The notes under the pieces are model-generated. The model made no database searches. It was not told the origin of the DNA and saw nothing but the letters and a program-made list of their open reading frames with translations. A stretch of 34,959 nt of DNA, taken from contig CAYYXJ010000003.1 of NCBI GenBank assembly GCA_964475455.1, forward strand, positions 1-34,959, written 5' to 3'. The first letter of the stretch is position 1, and the number at the start of each line of letters is the position of its first letter. This DNA is from an uncultured Clostridiaceae bacterium (GTDB lineage: Bacteria > Bacillota > Clostridia > DUPQ01). This document shows positions 2,837-34,673 of this stretch, in pieces. Made by a program: the position numbers and the translations under genes.

Positions 2837-3307
2837 TCATTCTTTAATAATAAAAGTAAAGTATTCAAACACTTCCTGAAGTAAAGATGCCAACTCTCCG
2901 CTTTTTTCTTCTCCCAGATAATCGGAAAGGCCGGTAAACCGTTTGTAAAAATCTTCATAACCCTTCTTAGCTAAATCACGTCCTTTACCCGACAATATTA
3001 CCCGTGTAACCCTTCCGTCATCCTCATCGGGAATTTTTTCAACATAACCCTTGCGTTCAAGGCTTTTGACAAGCTGGGTTACAGTAGGGACGGCGACACA
3101 TAGTTCGTCACTGATTTCAGAAATTTTCAGACCGGATCCTTTTTCCATATATGTGTGTTTAACAGTATGCAGGACCATGAATTCACTGGGCTTAAGTTCT
3201 TCAACATGTTTGGGTCTCCAGTGGATTTTTCGAAACTGTGAGAAAGCACTCATTAGTTTTTCAGCATTGATATTCTTTTCTTCTTTGATTGTGGACACCT
3301 CTTTCAT
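2837..3307 (-). CDS. MarR-family transcriptional regulator, first gene of the marR-ABC-ABC operon
   Basis: 156 aa with a winged-HTH region ISEISDELCVAVPTVTQLVKSLERKGYVEK..DDGRVTRVILSGKG. It lies 15 bp upstream of the ABC gene on the same strand. No strong SD precedes the start, so the exact start is uncertain. Confidence 0.82.
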   Translation of the reverse strand: MKEVSTIKEEKNINAEKLMSAFSQFRKIHWRPKHVEELKPSEFMVLHTVKHTYMEKGSGLKISEISDELCVAVPTVTQLVKSLERKGYVEKIPDEDDGRVTRVILSGKGRDLAKKGYEDFYKRFTGLSDYLGEEKSGELASLLQEVFEYFTFIIKE

Positions 3308-3416: not shown

Positions 3417-3492
3417 GGGCGCATAGCTCAGCTGGGAGAGCACCTGCCTTACAAGCAGGGGGTCATAGGTTCGAGCCCTATTGCGCCCACCA
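3417..3492 (+). tRNA. tRNA-Val (anticodon TAC)
   Basis: 76-nt cloverleaf folded by hand. The acceptor stem is GGGCGCA/TGCGCCC, the D stem GCTC/GAGC and the anticodon stem CCTGC/GCAGG with loop CTTACAA. The T arm is ATAGG-TTCGAGC-CCTAT, followed by discriminator A and an encoded CCA. Confidence 0.95.
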
Positions 3493-3497
3493 ATCCC

Positions 3498-3573
3498 GCT
3501 GGTGTAGCTCAGCCGGTAGAGCAGCTGATTTGTAATCAGCAGGTCGGGGGTTCGAATCCGTCCACCAGCTCCA
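3498..3573 (+). tRNA. tRNA-Thr (anticodon TGT)
   Basis: 76 nt. The acceptor stem is GCTGGTG/CACCAGC, the D stem GCTC/GAGC and the anticodon stem GCTGA/TCAGC with loop TTTGTAA. CCA is encoded. The T stem GGGGG/CCGTC carries one G-G mismatch (positions 3548 and 3560) and one G-T pair, hence the slightly lower confidence. Confidence 0.88.
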
Positions 3574-7305: not shown

Positions 7306-8759
7306 ATGGATATTAAGAAACTTACAATTAAAACAGCTTCCCAATATCTTAGGAACGGAGAAATTAGCCCCGTGGAACTCATAGATGAGTTTTATAAGAG
7401 AATTGATGAAACGGACAGTACGATAAATGCGTATATATACCTTAGCAAAGAAAAAGCAATGGAACAGGCGGTTAAATCATCATCAACATTAGGTGTTGAT
7501 AACAAGCCTTTGGCATGTATTCCAATGGCAGTTAAAGATAACATGTGTACTGCGGGGATTGAAACAACCTGCGGCTCAAAGATTCTGGATAATTTCATTC
7601 CACCTTATACCGCAACAGCGGTCAGTAAACTGGAGGATGCCGGAGCGGTTATGCTGGGCAAACTCAACCTTGATGAATTCGCTATGGGCGGAACCACTGA
7701 AAACTCATATTACAAGAAAACAAAAAATCCATGGAATATTAAGATGGTTCCGGGAGGTTCCTCCGGAGGTTCTGCTGCTGCGGTTGCATCCGGTCAGGCA
7801 ATTTTTGCCCTGGGTTCAGATACGGGTGGGTCAATCAGACAACCGGCAGCTTTTTGTGGAGTTGTTGGTCTAAAGCCCACCTATGGTACTGTTTCAAGAT
7901 ATGGACTTGTAGCATTTGCTTCAAGCCTTGATCAGATTGGCCCTATCACAAAGACTGTAGAATTGTTTTAAATGCGATAGCCGGAAGAGATCCCCGGGAT
8001 TCAACAAGCATAGAAACGGGAATAAACGATTACACCGAAGGGATAAATGAAAGCCCTGAAGGGATGAAAGCCTGTATACCTGCTCAGTATCTTTCTGAAG
8101 GAGTAGCCCCTGATGTACGGGATAAAGTAAAAAAGGCAATTGCTTATTATGAAAGCATTGGAGTTCGCTGTGAAGAAACTTCCCTTGATCTTGCTGATTA
8201 TGCAATTGCCGCCTATTACATTATATCTTCTGCTGAAGCCAGCTCAAATCTTGCAAGATATGATGGCATAAAATATGGTTATAGAAGTAAAAATTTCAAA
8301 AACCTGCTTGAACTGTACAAGAACTCAAGAAGTGAAGGGTTCGGGGATGAAGTAAAGAGAAGAATAATGCTCGGAACCTATGCCCTTAGTTCCGGTTATT
8401 ATGATGCATATTATAAAAAAGCCCTGAAGGTCAGGACCCTTATCAAACAGGAGTTTGACGAGCTATTTGCAAAATATGATTTTATTATCGGTCCTACAGC
8501 TCCGACTACGGCATATCCCCTGGGAGAAAAATCCGGTGACCCCCTGGAAATGTATCTTGGTGATGTATTTACAGTATCAGTTAACATTGCCGGCCTTCCT
8601 GCAATATCCATACCCTGCGGGTTGGATAAAAACGAACTTCCCATAGGAATGCAGCTGATTGGTAAAGCCTGTGGCGAAAAAACAATCCTGAGGGCAGCAA
8701 ATGCCTATGAAATGGGAAACCCTTTCCCCATGGCTGAGGAGGTATCCCATGGATTATGA
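7306..8759 (+). pseudogene. gatA: Glutamyl-tRNA(Gln)/aspartyl-tRNA(Asn) amidotransferase subunit A, interrupted by a frameshift near 7952-7971
   Basis: The N-terminal 221 aa (7306-7971) carries the amidase signature [12 protein letters not shown]. The C-terminal part is in another frame, open from 7932, and reads [19 protein letters not shown]... through to the stop at 8759. The two parts together make about 485 aa, the normal GatA length. Confidence 0.85.
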
Positions 8760-30199: not shown

Positions 30200-30831
30200 T
30201 GAATCCTGATTATAAAACAATTAGTGAACCTGGTTTTTCAGAGACTGTGGTAAAAAAATCACGGTTTATATCCTATGCAATGTCTGTAGCTGATGAGGAT
30301 AGCGCAAAACTTTTCATTGAAAACATTAAAGAAAAACACAGGGATGCATCTCATAATACATATGCCTACATAGTTGGCAAAGATACTGTAACGGAGAGAT
30401 ATTCTGATGACGGGGAACCTGGTGGAACAGCAGGCATTCCTATCCTTGAAAAAATCAGACACTTCGGCCTAACTGATATTGTTGTGGTAGTAACCAGATA
30501 TTTCGGGGGAAAACTTCTTGGAACCGGCGGTTTGGCAAGGGCATATTCAGGTGGGGCCGAGGATGTCATTAACAGATGCGGTATTTCAGCCTATATAAAA
30601 GGATATCTGGTTTCAGTGTCAACGGACTATCATTATCTGGGAAAAGTTCAGAACTATATTCAAGGCAATGCTTACCGGGTTTTGGATGAAAATTTTACAG
30701 ACCATGTTATAATTAGTACGCTTATTCCGGTACAGGAATATGATAAAGTAAAAAAACATATAAAAGATATAACAAATGCCAGGGCATTTGTTGATGTGGT
30801 CAAGGAAGAATATATTGAAATGGAGATTTGA
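30196..30831 (+). CDS. yigZ: YigZ / IMPACT-family protein (UPF0029)
   Basis: KSRFISYA, ASHNTYAYIVG, DDGEPGGTAG and VVVTRYFGGKLLGTGGL. An ATGA overlap joins it to dut. Confidence 0.8.
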   Translation: MMNPDYKTISEPGFSETVVKKSRFISYAMSVADEDSAKLFIENIKEKHRDASHNTYAYIVGKDTVTERYSDDGEPGGTAGIPILEKIRHFGLTDIVVVVTRYFGGKLLGTGGLARAYSGGAEDVINRCGISAYIKGYLVSVSTDYHYLGKVQNYIQGNAYRVLDENFTDHVIISTLIPVQEYDKVKKHIKDITNARAFVDVVKEEYIEMEI

Positions 30832-31559: not shown

Positions 31560-31976
31560 ATGATTAATACAACAGAAATAATTGCAAGATATGCTGAAAC
31601 AGACAAAATGGGAATCATACATCATAGTGTTTATGCCGTTTGGTTTGAAGCAGCAAGAACAGAGTTTATCAAGGGAATCGGAATACCATACAGTGAGTGT
31701 GAATCGCGTGGCCTGATGTTGCCTCTCATAAGCCTCGAATGCAAATATAACAAACCGGCATATTATGAAGATGTCATTGCAATTGAATCAAGCATCCAAA
31801 AGGCTACGCCGGTCCGCCTCGTAATCTCATATACTGCAAAAAATAAAAACACAGGAGACCTGATTGCAACCGGCAAGACAATACATGTCTGGACCGACGG
31901 TGATCGAAAACCAATCGATATGCGAAAAAAAGCACCTGATATTTATCAACTGATGATCAACAATGTAACCGAATGA
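31560..31976 (+). CDS. Acyl-CoA thioesterase, 4HBT/YbgC hotdog family
   Basis: 138 aa, RYAETDKMGIIHHSVYAVWFEAARTEFI, a hotdog-fold pattern. Confidence 0.8.
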   Translation: MINTTEIIARYAETDKMGIIHHSVYAVWFEAARTEFIKGIGIPYSECESRGLMLPLISLECKYNKPAYYEDVIAIESSIQKATPVRLVISYTAKNKNTGDLIATGKTIHVWTDGDRKPIDMRKKAPDIYQLMINNVTE

Positions 31977-32009
31977 CCTTCAACCGGGGGTTTTTCTTTA
32001 TCCCCGCAA

Positions 32010-32255
32010 ATAATCATTCCCGACCTGAATATTTGCGATAATCATTCCCGACCTGAATATTGCGATAATCATCCCCGACCTGAATATTGCGATAATCATC
32101 CCCGACCTGAATATTGCAATAATCATCCCCGACCTGAATATTTGCGATAATCATCCCCGACCTGAATATTGCAATAATTATTCCCGACCTGAATATTTGC
32201 GATAATCATCCCCGACCTGAATATTGCAATAATCATTCCCGACCTGAATATTAAG
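32010..32255. repeat. Tandem array of nine 27/28-bp direct repeats with no spacers, consensus ATAATCATYCCCGACCTGAATAT(T)TGCR
   Basis: Units start at 32010, 32038, 32065, 32092, 32119, 32147, 32174, 32202 and 32229, with lengths 28, 27, 27, 27, 28, 27, 28, 27 and 27. A truncated copy precedes the array at about 31999-32009. Confidence 0.95.
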
Positions 32256-32259
32256 TGGT

Positions 32260-32287
32260 TTGATATGAGAGGGTTTTGTAGTATAAT
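32260..32287 (+). promoter_or_regulatory. Sigma-A-type promoter for the nuclease-helicase gene
   Basis: TTGATA (32260-32265), a 16-nt spacer, then TATAAT (32282-32287). It begins 5 bp after the last repeat unit. Confidence 0.55.
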
Positions 32288-32293
32288 TATTTA

Positions 32294-32307
32294 AGAACAT
32301 ATGTTTG
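32294..32307 (+). promoter_or_regulatory. LexA-type SOS (Cheo) box
   Basis: AGAACATATGTTTG compares with the Bacillus-type consensus CGAACRNRYGTTYC / CGAAC-N4-GTTCG. The GAAC-ATAT-GTTT core has one half-site mismatch. It lies 7 nt downstream of the -10 hexamer, over the expected TSS. Confidence 0.6.
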
Positions 32308-34673
32308 GAGGGGTTGTGGGTAAGAAAACTGTCAGGGCATCTGTCAGGGAGATTGTTGAATTTAGTTTAAAAAAAGGCAGTCTTGAAAAAGGACGATCTG
32401 CCATAAGCGTTGAGGATGCTTTTGATGGAACCAGATGTCATGTTGAATTTCAGGAAAAAATGACAGGCAAATTCGGAGCAGATAAATTCAAGTCTGAAGT
32501 ATACCAAAAGTGTGAAATTGAAAATGATGAAATAAATCTCATTATTTCCGGTCGAATTGATGGTGTTCTGTATTCAGAAGAGTCAATTTATATTTATGAA
32601 ATTAAATCTGTAGCCAGGGAGATTGAAACAATTGCTGAGTCTGAATTTCCTGTTCATTGGGCGCAGGCAGAATGCTATGCATGGATGCTTCTTGATAATA
32701 CTGATAAAAATGAGATTTATATCCGTCTGGTCTATATTAATCGTGACAGCCGGGAAAGCAAACAATTCGAAAGGGTGTATTCAGGAAAAGAAATCGATGC
32801 TGCTTTTAAAAAAATGGTAAGCCCTTACATTGAATGGATGGCAGGTATCAGAAAGTGGGAAGTCCTTAGGAATGAAAGCATAAAAGCCATGGAATTTCCT
32901 TTCTCGTATTACCGGCTTGGACAACGGGAAATGGCTGAAAAAACATATATATCTATAAAAGATAAAACCCGGCTTTTTGTGCAGGCTCCTACGGGAATAG
33001 GTAAAACAATGGGAGCTGTATTCCCGGCAATAAAGGCATTGGGTGAAGGCTTGGTTGATCGTATATTCTATCTTACAGCCAAGAATGTAACTTCTTTGAT
33101 AGCTGTGGAAAACTACAAAAGGCTTGCTGAAAACGGATTGAATCTAAGGACTGCTGTAATAACTGCAAAGGACAAGGTTTGCCCTCTGGAAAAAAGAAAC
33201 TGTGACCCTGAATTCTGCGAAAGAGCAAAGGATTATTATGATCGTTCTCCTGCAGCACTGAAGGAACTTCTGACGAACCAATTCATGGATAGGAATGTTG
33301 TTGGTAAGTATGCAGATAAATATAATATTTGCCCGTTTGAACTCTCCCTGGATGCTTCTCAATACAGTGATTTGGTTATTGGTGATTACAACTATTTGTT
33401 TGATCCAAGGGTGAGATTGATCAGGTTCTTTGAAGATGTTGGGGAAGACTATTGTTTCCTAATTGATGAAGCCCACAATCTTGTGGAACGTTCCAGGGAG
33501 ATGTTTTCAAGCTTGATTGAAAAAAAGAAAGTGCTTGAATTAAAGCGGGAAACCAAGCCTGCATGGGATGACTTAAAAGAAAGACTTGAAACGGTCAATA
33601 AACAGATGTTGACATTGAAAAAGGATATTTTCAATGATTACAAGGAGGAAAATTATGCTGCCATGCATGAAATTCCGGGCAACCTTGTATCTGCAGTCAG
33701 AAGATGTACGGTTCTTATGGAATTTTATCTGGATAATGATATGGATGAAGAATACAAGGAAAAATATATGGAGCTTTACTTCGATTTCATGTTCTTTTCG
33801 AAGATTTCAGAGCTATATGATGATTGTTATGCTACTTTTTATGAAGCAAGCGGAAGCAATCTTAGAGTAAAACTCATGTGCCTTGATCCCTCCAAACTAC
33901 TTTCAAGGGTTATGGATAAAGGTCGTAGCTCAATACTTTTCAGCGCAACACTTCAACCTCAGGATTATTATAAGAACATATTGGGCGGACGGAGGAACGA
34001 CAGATCTATAAGCCTTCCATCTCCTTTTCCCGTAGAAAATCTCAGCATTGTGATAGAAGGACGAATCAGTACAAAGTACAGGGAAAGACACAATTCGTAT
34101 TATAATGTAGCAAAATTGCTAAGAGATGCCTTTGGTAAAAGAACAGGAAATTATATAGCATTTTTCCCTTCCTACAGATACATGCAGGATGTTTTGCATA
34201 TATATGAAGAATTTTCCCTGGATAATGAGATAATTGTACAAAAACCCGGAATGAACGATACTGAGAGAGAAATTTTCCTGGAAAAATTTGAAAACCACGG
34301 TTCCTGTACTCTGGTAGCCTTTGCTGTCATGGGTGGGATTTTCGGAGAGGGCATTGACCTTGCGGGAGAAAGACTTTCGGGGGTTGTTATCATTGGAACA
34401 GGACTGCCCACTGTTTGTCCTGAACGTGAACTCATAATGAACCATTACAATGAAAAAAACGGTTCTGGGTTTGACTATGCCTACACATTTCCCGGTCTCA
34501 ACCGTGTCCTTCAGGCTGCAGGAAGGGTAATAAGAAGTGAATATGACAAAGGTTTTGTCATTTTGATTGATAAAAGATTCATAAGTTACAAATACAGGGA
34601 TTTATACCCGGAGTGGTGGGTTCCGGAATATATAACTTCATCTGATGAGGATATTACTGATTACATAGTGTGA
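32301..34673 (+). CDS. PD-(D/E)xK nuclease domain fused to an FeS-cluster XPD/Rad3/DinG-family SF2 DNA helicase
   Basis: The N-terminal nuclease motifs are GRID87GV, IYE100IK102S and Q122AECY126. The helicase has Walker A QAPTGIGKT, a four-Cys cluster C-x6-C-x4-C-x37-C, DEAH (LIDEAHNL) and C-terminal motifs SATL and QAAGRVIRS. The start is ambiguous: either ATG 32301, with no SD and lying inside the LexA box, or in-frame GTG 32316, 4 nt after GGAGG. Confidence 0.85.
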   Translation: MFGGVVGKKTVRASVREIVEFSLKKGSLEKGRSAISVEDAFDGTRCHVEFQEKMTGKFGADKFKSEVYQKCEIENDEINLIISGRIDGVLYSEESIYIYEIKSVAREIETIAESEFPVHWAQAECYAWMLLDNTDKNEIYIRLVYINRDSRESKQFERVYSGKEIDAAFKKMVSPYIEWMAGIRKWEVLRNESIKAMEFPFSYYRLGQREMAEKTYISIKDKTRLFVQAPTGIGKTMGAVFPAIKALGEGLVDRIFYLTAKNVTSLIAVENYKRLAENGLNLRTAVITAKDKVCPLEKRNCDPEFCERAKDYYDRSPAALKELLTNQFMDRNVVGKYADKYNICPFELSLDASQYSDLVIGDYNYLFDPRVRLIRFFEDVGEDYCFLIDEAHNLVERSREMFSSLIEKKKVLELKRETKPAWDDLKERLETVNKQMLTLKKDIFNDYKEENYAAMHEIPGNLVSAVRRCTVLMEFYLDNDMDEEYKEKYMELYFDFMFFSKISELYDDCYATFYEASGSNLRVKLMCLDPSKLLSRVMDKGRSSILFSATLQPQDYYKNILGGRRNDRSISLPSPFPVENLSIVIEGRISTKYRERHNSYYNVAKLLRDAFGKRTGNYIAFFPSYRYMQDVLHIYEEFSLDNEIIVQKPGMNDTEREIFLEKFENHGSCTLVAFAVMGGIFGEGIDLAGERLSGVVIIGTGLPTVCPERELIMNHYNEKNGSGFDYAYTFPGLNRVLQAAGRVIRSEYDKGFVILIDKRFISYKYRDLYPEWWVPEYITSSDEDITDYIV

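Follow-up and report, generated by a model that had tools for sequence, protein, structure and literature searches.

In the window, by which we mean the whole 34,959-nucleotide stretch of DNA analyzed here, from an uncultured Clostridiaceae bacterium, a spacer-less tandem array fills most of the gap between a thioesterase gene and a helicase gene and adjoins the helicase promoter, as the sequence-only reading of this DNA had described. The upstream gene (31560–31976, + strand) encodes a YbgC/FadM-type 4HBT acyl-CoA thioesterase by its NCBIfam and Pfam matches, and is the last of a run comprising ZapA, dUTPase, a YigZ family protein, a YebC/PmpR family protein and the thioesterase itself; the same gene order is found in L051–L053 and L056–L058, handles that here denote loci of related lineages. 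The downstream gene (32316–34673, + strand) encodes, again by Pfam and NCBIfam matches, a Rad3/XPD–DinG-family helicase with an N-terminal PD-(D/E)XK (Cas4-like) nuclease domain. Otherwise the window is housekeeping chromosome, with an MsbA-like ABC transporter, two tRNAs, gatA/gatB, pta–ackA, der, plsY, rlmB, transketolase, PEPCK, zapA, dut and the YigZ and YebC/PmpR family genes, and it holds no replication, partition, phage or cas genes.

The array consists of 8.9 abutting copies of ATAATCATYCCCGACCTGAATAT(T)TGCR at 32010–32252 on the + strand, a description on which the sequence itself, TRF and a regular-expression parse agree. It opens with three units that end in G: U1 (32010–32037, 28 bp), U2 (32038–32064, 27 bp) and U3 (32065–32091, 27 bp). 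These are followed by U4 (32092–32118, 27 bp), U5 (32119–32146, 28 bp), U6 (32147–32173, 27 bp), U7 (32174–32201, 28 bp), U8 (32202–32228, 27 bp) and a partial, 24-bp U9 (32229–32252) that is cut after ATATT. A degenerate or partial unit beginning ATCCCCGCAA occupies the left flank (31998–32009). Variation among the units is confined to three sites, namely T or C at position 9, TT or TTT, and a terminal G or A, apart from a single C>T change at unit position 6 of U7. From U4 to U8, 27-bp units ending in TTGCA alternate strictly with 28-bp units ending in TTTGCG, which produces a 55-bp higher-order repeat. Accordingly TRF scores the array at 403 with a period of 27 (8.9 copies, 92% matches), at 446 with a period of 55 (4.5 copies, 95% matches) and at 423 with a period of 82, whereas the remaining tandem repeats of the 35 kb do not exceed a score of 55. 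In a scan of the window, the consensus unit with up to three mismatches matched seven times, always inside the array, where shuffled sequence gives an expectation of 0. The unit halves were likewise confined to the array (0–0.8 matches expected for the unit and its halves), and a 14-mer core matched nine times within it; the one match of this core outside, with one mismatch at 30543–30556 inside the YigZ family gene, is a chance match. The roughly nine 27/28-bp units, their variable sites and the 55-bp period that had been read from the letters are thus all borne out, as is the uniqueness of the array within the 35 kb. A head-to-tail, spacer-less repeat of a unit between 10 and 100 bp, present far above chance, is what is meant by a minisatellite.

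The array is not a product of a single assembly. Two short contigs from ENA metagenomes, L001 and L002, also encode the exact thioesterase protein; they are independent short-read contigs of the same species that differ from the window by one to three substitutions, and both of them enter the array. The array is therefore real.

On its left, the array is preceded by a terminator-like hairpin (31971–31997, + strand; GAA.GACCUUC-AACC-GGGGGUU.UUC), recognized by a consensus scan and local RNA folding, which overlaps the thioesterase stop codon and carries the U-rich tail UUUCUUUAU. All five sequence-distinct relatives with a thioesterase–helicase gap that were inspected have clear intrinsic terminators at the corresponding place, and the hairpin of the window is a putative terminator as well; the sequence-only reading, which had seen no convincing terminator behind the thioesterase gene, is to be amended on this point. 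On the right lies the best promoter match of the region, the sigma-70-type TTGATA-16 nt-TATAAT (32260–32287, + strand), which agrees with the consensus at 11 of 12 positions. The stretch from GTGGTTTGATA to TATAAT is kept in the closest relative, L051, and the −10 element in all related loci inspected. A LexA (Cheo) box, GAACATATGTTT (32295–32306, + strand), lies downstream of the −10 element and upstream of the ribosome-binding site. It agrees with GAACnnnnGTTT, the motif that PMC4234289 uses for clostridial LexA, and is a predicted site of LexA binding. The ribosome-binding site itself, GGAGG (32307–32311, + strand), is kept by most relatives, some of which have GGAG or GGGG instead. The array does end directly before the −35 element, but unit homology stops at 32252 and not at 32255, the last three letters (AAG) being non-unit sequence, and the distance to the −35 hexamer (32260–32265) is 7 bp, not the 5 bp first given.

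A search with the helicase protein led to a clade of uncultured Clostridia whose helicases are about 52–81% identical, and nine related lineages were taken from it, eight for comparison of their loci and one, P0017 (53% by BLASTP), as a protein only. In order of BLASTP helicase identity, the lineages whose gaps contain no repeats are L051 (81%, gap of 129 bp), L052–55 (77%, 72 bp), L056 (70%, 109 bp) and L141 (57%, 161 bp), to which are added L140 (63%) and L142 (55%), where the upstream gene differs and the gap is again free of repeats. The remaining two, L057 (63%, 218 bp) and L058/59 (62%, 166 bp), carry duplications of their own. Adjacency of the thioesterase and helicase genes is kept in seven of the nine lineages, and the longer order PEPCK, ZapA, dUTPase, YigZ, YebC/PmpR, thioesterase, helicase, YjeF, Alr is conserved in most. 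Against syntenic gaps of 72–218 bp in these relatives, the gap of the window measures 324–339 bp with its 8.9 copies of the 27/28-bp repeat. The array occurs in none of the related loci inspected, even though these keep the −10 element, the LexA box and the ribosome-binding site; the orthologous sites of the inspected relatives are empty of it, as they would be for a lineage-restricted minisatellite.

The two duplications of the relatives are instructive. L058 bears tandem terminator hairpins in its spacer (41 bp × 2.8, TRF score 218), and L057 bears three copies of a single hairpin, TTGTCCCTAGGGACAA; within the fetched loci, both duplications are restricted to the thioesterase–helicase spacer. 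They resemble the array in occupying the same spacer, in being local duplications, and in leaving the downstream promoter, LexA box and ribosome-binding site intact. They differ from it in sequence, which is unrelated, and in make-up, since they are full G+C-rich terminator hairpins with T-runs in about three copies, whereas the unit of the array is not a terminator and is present in about nine. Because L057 and L058 gained these other duplications independently, the spacer appears to tolerate or even attract unrelated duplications, and this readiness to accept unrelated sequence argues against a sequence-specific function of the array. As a background, 73 distant helicase loci (36–44% identity, from an alignment of the helicase against metagenomes) showed tandem repeats upstream of the gene in five weak cases, the best with a score of 96.

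Searches of wider collections brought up no counterpart of the unit beyond roughly chance numbers. An 18-mer of its invariant core, scanned against 185,579 species genomes (596 Gb), gave 48 single matches where we estimate about 35 by chance, and none of these matches was tandem or spanned a whole unit. The one match of 24 nt, L047, was judged a coincidence, as the sequence there (..EIIIPDLNI..) codes for part of a membrane protein that is unrelated. A 22-mer of the unit had no match in the JGI metagenomes and the 18-mer none in IMG/VR, blastn against plasmids and phages returned nothing, and Rfam 15 had no gathering-level match in the region, the best E-values of a relaxed Rfam search being 1.1–1.4 at 16–18 bits against cut-offs of 60–112. 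A widely dispersed REP-like family, which had been named as the finding that would make the array a generic genomic repeat, is thus absent from the species genomes, the JGI metagenomes and IMG/VR, and the array appears, from these sequence searches, to be private to one species.

Nor does the array look like a gene. Its non-coding character, proposed from the start, is upheld by a + strand without any open reading frame of 30 aa or more and a − strand with only mechanical ones of 37–46 aa. A coding reading was nevertheless tried: with nine codons to the 27-bp unit, two frames stay open on either strand, yet the frame is broken by the 28-bp units and the + strand offers no start codon, and the reading was dropped. 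A search of 5.8 billion proteins with a four-frame chimera of the unit found nothing, a result that is uninformative, as the search also missed an array-derived open reading frame known from L002.

The reading that we prefer, at a probability of roughly 0.7, is that the array is a recent, lineage-private minisatellite that arose by slippage or unequal recombination and has no selected function. Under this explanation, a native 27/28-bp stretch of the spacer that separates the terminator of the thioesterase gene from the LexA-controlled promoter of the helicase gene would have been amplified head to tail, probably through replication slippage or unequal recombination, with amplification of single units coming first and of 55-bp two-unit blocks later. 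The units are homogeneous (92% matches with a period of 27, 95% with a period of 55), which suggests that the expansion was recent, and the higher agreement at the longer period indicates that its later rounds copied two-unit blocks. The source of the unit can be surmised from the closest relative. In L051, conservation with the window starts at GTGGTTTGATA, immediately to the right of the array, and the diverged spacer before it contains single pieces of a unit, in the order ATTCCCG, 17 nt, GATAATAATCAT and then the conserved GTGGTTTGATA. An inverted-repeat scan found neither terminal inverted repeats nor a target-site duplication flanking the array, only arm-to-arm matches within it. These pieces, the degenerate unit of the left flank and the lack of flanking inverted repeats or duplication are together consistent with a unit that came from the native spacer and not from an inserted element. 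The effects of the amplification would be incidental, in that about 245 bp were added between the upstream terminator and the promoter while the promoter, LexA box and ribosome-binding site were left intact. That there is no selected function is the most likely state of affairs because the array is non-coding and has neither a conserved partner nor a counterpart in relatives.

So understood, the array is a further instance of a well-known kind, the bacterial intergenic minisatellite. Such minisatellite or VNTR loci, reviewed in PMC3899988, include the MIRU-VNTR loci of Mycobacterium tuberculosis and the MLVA loci of many species. Like the array, they are made of head-to-tail units of tens of base pairs without spacers, lie between genes, show high identity with few variant positions and are present in one lineage, and their origin is likewise ascribed to slippage or unequal recombination. 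Two differences bear mention. VNTR loci are in practice defined by copy-number polymorphism among strains, whereas the same-species contigs available here end inside the array, and the 55-bp two-unit period is a detail seldom reported for them. The copy number of the array is probably variable, and of the roles offered by the sequence-only reading the VNTR idea is the one that survives, shorn of its contingency component: a promoter switch would need repeats within the −35/−10 spacer, over a core promoter element or inside the reading frame, but with its end at 32252 the array stops short of the −35 element, which begins at 32260, and the 16-nt spacer and everything downstream lie outside it. 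Being wholly upstream of the −35 element, the array cannot, by gaining or losing units, change the −35/−10 spacing, the promoter geometry or the reading frame. What the array is likely to offer is a strain-typing (VNTR) marker for one uncultured Clostridia species; it matters little beyond its own locus.

Among the explanations that would give the array a function, a cis-regulatory platform is the first to be weighed. On this account, nine near-palindromic 18-bp sites, TGAATATTGCRATAATCA, spaced 27–28 bp apart, bind a dimeric regulator or a nucleoid-associated protein, and either tune the helicase promoter or serve as a decoy. The unit junctions of the type ending in GCA do form a palindrome, TGAATATTGCAATAATCA, that is self-complementary at 16 of 18 positions, the array comes within 7 bp of the −35 element, and a DNA-binding regulator of the YebC/PmpR family is encoded two genes upstream. 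Yet the commoner junctions, those ending in GCG and those of 28 bp, are by our own count palindromic at only about 14 of 18 positions or fewer, and an AT-rich 18-mer with a 16/18 palindrome is, by our estimate, only marginally unusual when all centers are considered. A spacing of 2.6 turns would moreover put neighboring sites on different faces of the helix. The site was not found elsewhere in the 35 kb, and relatives lack it although they conserve the promoter, the LexA box and the gene order. We regard a regulatory platform as unlikely. The iteron or operator platform of the sequence-only reading fares no better, given a housekeeping chromosomal setting without replication or partition genes, the absence of similarity to plasmids or phages, and relatives that do without the array. 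Ordered direct repeats of 20–30 bp are also a trait of iterons and CRISPR, but iterons go with a rep gene next to them and with origin features, neither of which was found at the array, and CRISPR needs unique spacers and cas genes, whereas the units here abut directly and the only Cas-like signal is a sub-threshold Cas4 match to the helicase PD-(D/E)XK domain (20 bits, where the cut-off is 65).

The second functional explanation takes the array to be a transcribed, repetitive RNA of nine or ten tandem 27-nt hairpins with C-rich loops (UYCCCGACC), made by read-through from the thioesterase operon or from an unrecognized promoter, whose role could be to stabilize the mRNA at its 3′ end or, as a sponge, to capture sequences that are G-rich and Shine-Dalgarno-like. 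Regulatory RNAs of Firmicutes have UCCC motifs, which C-rich loops of this sort resemble. On a transcript of the − strand, should one be made, the loops, GGUCGGGGA, could bind CsrA-type proteins. At first sight, the folding numbers favor such an RNA. Each unit can be drawn as a hairpin with the 5′ arm GCRAUAAUCA, the loop just given and the 3′ arm UGAAUAUUGC, at −5.0 to −5.3 kcal/mol. The strongest local hairpin (32005–32037), whose 5′ arm joins CGCAA of the left flank to the first bases of U1, reaches −8.6 kcal/mol (z = −4.6), and the fold of the whole gap on the + strand has a z of −3.65. G·U pairs, including the one created by the C>T change of U7, preserve pairing on the + strand only. These numbers are inflated, however, by the repetition and by the free choice of register. 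In a register-free control, in which the 27-nt unit was shuffled and tandemized, between 6.5% (A variant) and 25% (G variant) of the shuffles folded as well on the + strand, and 24–83% on the − strand, so that the hairpins and z-scores are not significant (+ strand p = 0.065–0.25), and the structured-RNA reading was rejected on that ground. The centroid structure of the array is unpaired, the closest relative L051 has no homologous hairpin, and the terminator-like hairpin stands upstream of the array. Promoter-like sites are absent from both strands of the array, and none enters from the − strand side. The repetitive structured RNA suggested by the sequence-only reading, for which Rfam is empty as well, is therefore not sustained once the register is freed, and we hold a transcribed RNA of this kind to be very unlikely. 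An antisense CsrA sponge was tried and set aside, as a scan of the − strand gave neither a promoter nor a terminator and its fold does not surpass that of shuffles. The known CsrB/RsmZ-type sponges have their own promoter and terminator, GGA loop motifs and conservation across species; the − strand loops of the array do contain GGGGAUG, but the promoter and terminator are missing and relatives lack the array.

A different doubt concerns the length of the array and not its nature. While the array itself exists, its length in the window and the order of its units might in part be an assembly artifact, produced where a cycle in the de Bruijn graph was resolved arbitrarily. Both same-species contigs stop inside the array, and L002 has a different letter from the window at both 32127 and 32157, within the array. 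A single-base frameshift in gatA, beside an A-run elsewhere in the window, may be a sequence error. Against this, L002 aligns without gaps over the first 5.5 units and reproduces the 28/27/27/27/28 order of the first five, and the variant positions distinguish most of the 55-bp blocks. As L002 repeats the order of unit lengths without gaps, the TT/TTT difference between units cannot be put down to a homopolymer error. An arbitrary resolution of this kind has, in our judgment, only a slim chance of being right, and it would touch copy number alone. L002 shows no resolvable difference in copy number from the window, and the exact copy number given here is provisional on account of those contig ends and of the two differing positions. 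The array likely breaks short-read assemblies, which explains the contig ends of this species at the thioesterase–helicase gap.

The array could also be a minisatellite lying inside a small mobile element that is non-autonomous, of MITE or REP-like type, dispersed in the source genome and inserted at this locus. Intergenic MITEs with spacer-less 23-nt minisatellites do exist, the example being BrickBuilt of Porphyromonas gingivalis (PMC4596501), which shares with the array its spacer-less units of about 25 nt, its intergenic location and its proximity to promoters. A sequence present in one species and absent from its relatives is, moreover, what an insertion would leave, and the search for further copies in the source genome covered the 35-kb window, most of that genome lying outside it. 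BrickBuilt, however, has 19 dispersed copies per genome, leader and tail subunits, ends with inverted repeats, and promoter activity (PMC4596501), whereas the array has one locus within the 35 kb, no flanking terminal inverted repeats, no leader or tail modules and no promoter-like site inside. Short G-rich and T-rich motifs at its flanks recur in the array-free L051 and so do not represent a target-site duplication, pieces of the unit are present in the L051 spacer, and the 185,579 species genomes gave close to chance matches while the metagenome and viral collections gave none. A mobile origin is thus quite improbable. REP and BIME clusters, which in Enterobacteria lie at the 3′ ends of operons, invite the same comparison, having hundreds of dispersed copies, alternating orientation within BIMEs and a conserved GTAG end. 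The array shares with them small hairpin-capable units just after a terminator and between co-directional genes, but all its units are direct, it occupies a single locus within the 35 kb, and its hairpins are not significant.

Finally, the array might be functional and newly evolved, as a weak-hairpin RNA sponge or 3′-end stabilizer that is transcribed together with the operon upstream, or as a nine-site DNA decoy that tunes the SOS-regulated helicase promoter, a prospect to which we give very little credence. Were it true, the array would be a regulatory or RNA element that had originated de novo through the expansion of a repeat, and, together with the duplications of L057 and L058, it would suggest that repeat "insulators" separating a constitutive operon from a LexA-controlled gene have been selected for repeatedly; the findings lend no support to such a function.

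The most useful by-product of the comparison is the conserved LexA-box layout of the helicase gene, together with a corrected start codon. The comparison fixes this layout as a terminator, a sigma-70-type promoter, the conserved LexA box, the ribosome-binding site and a GTG start. The box, AGAACA(T/G)(A/T)TGTTTG, is present at a conserved position in all related loci inspected, and is found in only 3 of the 73 distant helicase loci, being absent from the other 70. Because this architecture is conserved across the related loci, the gene of the Rad3/XPD-type nuclease-helicase probably belongs to the SOS genes of this clade of uncultured Clostridia. As to the start, the sequence-only reading had placed it at an ATG at 32301, which lies inside the LexA box, upstream of the ribosome-binding site, and is not conserved. 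The probable start is the GTG at 32316, which most related loci keep. In keeping with this, the database copy of the helicase of the window, P0001, has 785 aa and matches the GTG start, which is why an exact look-up of the 790-aa form that begins at the ATG finds no record. In L052–L055, ATTTGT stands in place of the ATG, and the GTG after GGAGG is kept. The 324-bp gap stated earlier is correct to the ATG, and becomes 339 bp when measured to the more probable GTG.

Upstream of the Rad3/XPD-type nuclease–helicase gene, a Cheo/LexA-type box, AGAACATATGTTTG, at window positions 32295–32306, separates the −10 element from the ribosome-binding site. A box of the same type lies directly 5′ of the helicase start in the related Clostridia loci L051, L052–56, L057, L058 and L140–L142. 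It is kept in all nine close-clade lineages, as opposed to a mere 3 of the 73 distant homologues. This lopsided distribution suggests that the helicase was recruited into the SOS regulon specifically in the close clade. The sequence-only reading had placed the helicase start at the ATG at 32301, a codon that falls within the LexA box itself and 5′ of the GGAGG. The conserved start is instead the GTG at 32316, which yields a protein of 785 amino acids, matching the database copy, P0001.

The spacer between the thioesterase and helicase genes, which in the window holds the array of 27/28-bp units, also contains duplications in relatives. In L058, from the Clostridia MAG GCA_016935835.1 (helicase 62% identical to that of the window), a 41-bp unit is repeated 2.8 times in tandem at 2846–2961 of this spacer. 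Each copy constitutes a complete intrinsic terminator, in which AAACAGTTGCC-CAAG-GGCAACTGTTT precedes a T-run. L059, a separate contig whose helicase is identical to that of L058, starts within the last 41-bp copy. In L057 (helicase 63% identical), the same spacer bears three copies of the hairpin TTGTCCCTAGGGACAA at 2783–2965, two of which are full terminators, with a different terminator situated between copies. With the L057 hairpin copies, the clade counts three independent duplication events in this spacer. A further departure is seen at 3020–3930 of L054. The 77% relative is represented by three near-identical contigs, and this one lacks a called YebC/PmpR family gene, the expected thioesterase position holds only an 89-amino-acid remnant, and the YigZ–helicase distance is ~250 bp less than in L052 and L053. 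L054 may represent a deletion variant in the population of this relative.

Away from these loci, 24 nt of array unit 7, ATAATTATTCCCGACCTGAATATT, recur without mismatch on the minus strand of L047 (218–247). They fall in the coding sequence (..NNEIIIPDLNIIKK..) of a 351-amino-acid membrane protein from an unrelated Bacillota MAG; the in-frame translation of the 27-bp array unit reads IIIPDLNIA. The L047 match, one of 48 at roughly chance level, was judged a coincidence. Among the distant helicase loci, L117 and L122 carry a 9-bp repeat, AACCCAACA/G, in 5.8 copies ~60–120 bp upstream of the helicase match, its sequence unrelated to the window array.

Elsewhere in the window, gatA (7306–8759) is split into two open reading frames, 7306–7971 and 8064–8759. 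The break, near 7955–7970, is an apparent single-base frameshift beside an A-run (..ATCACAAAGACTGTAGAATT..), past which the downstream part continues in the adjacent frame; it stems either from an error in sequencing or from a genuine shift of frame in this essential gene. Two adjacent tRNA genes at 3417–3570 (Rfam RF00005, 71 and 67 bits) are flanked by a divergent pair, encoding a MarR-family regulator and an MsbA-like ABC exporter, and by a methyltransferase-like gene.
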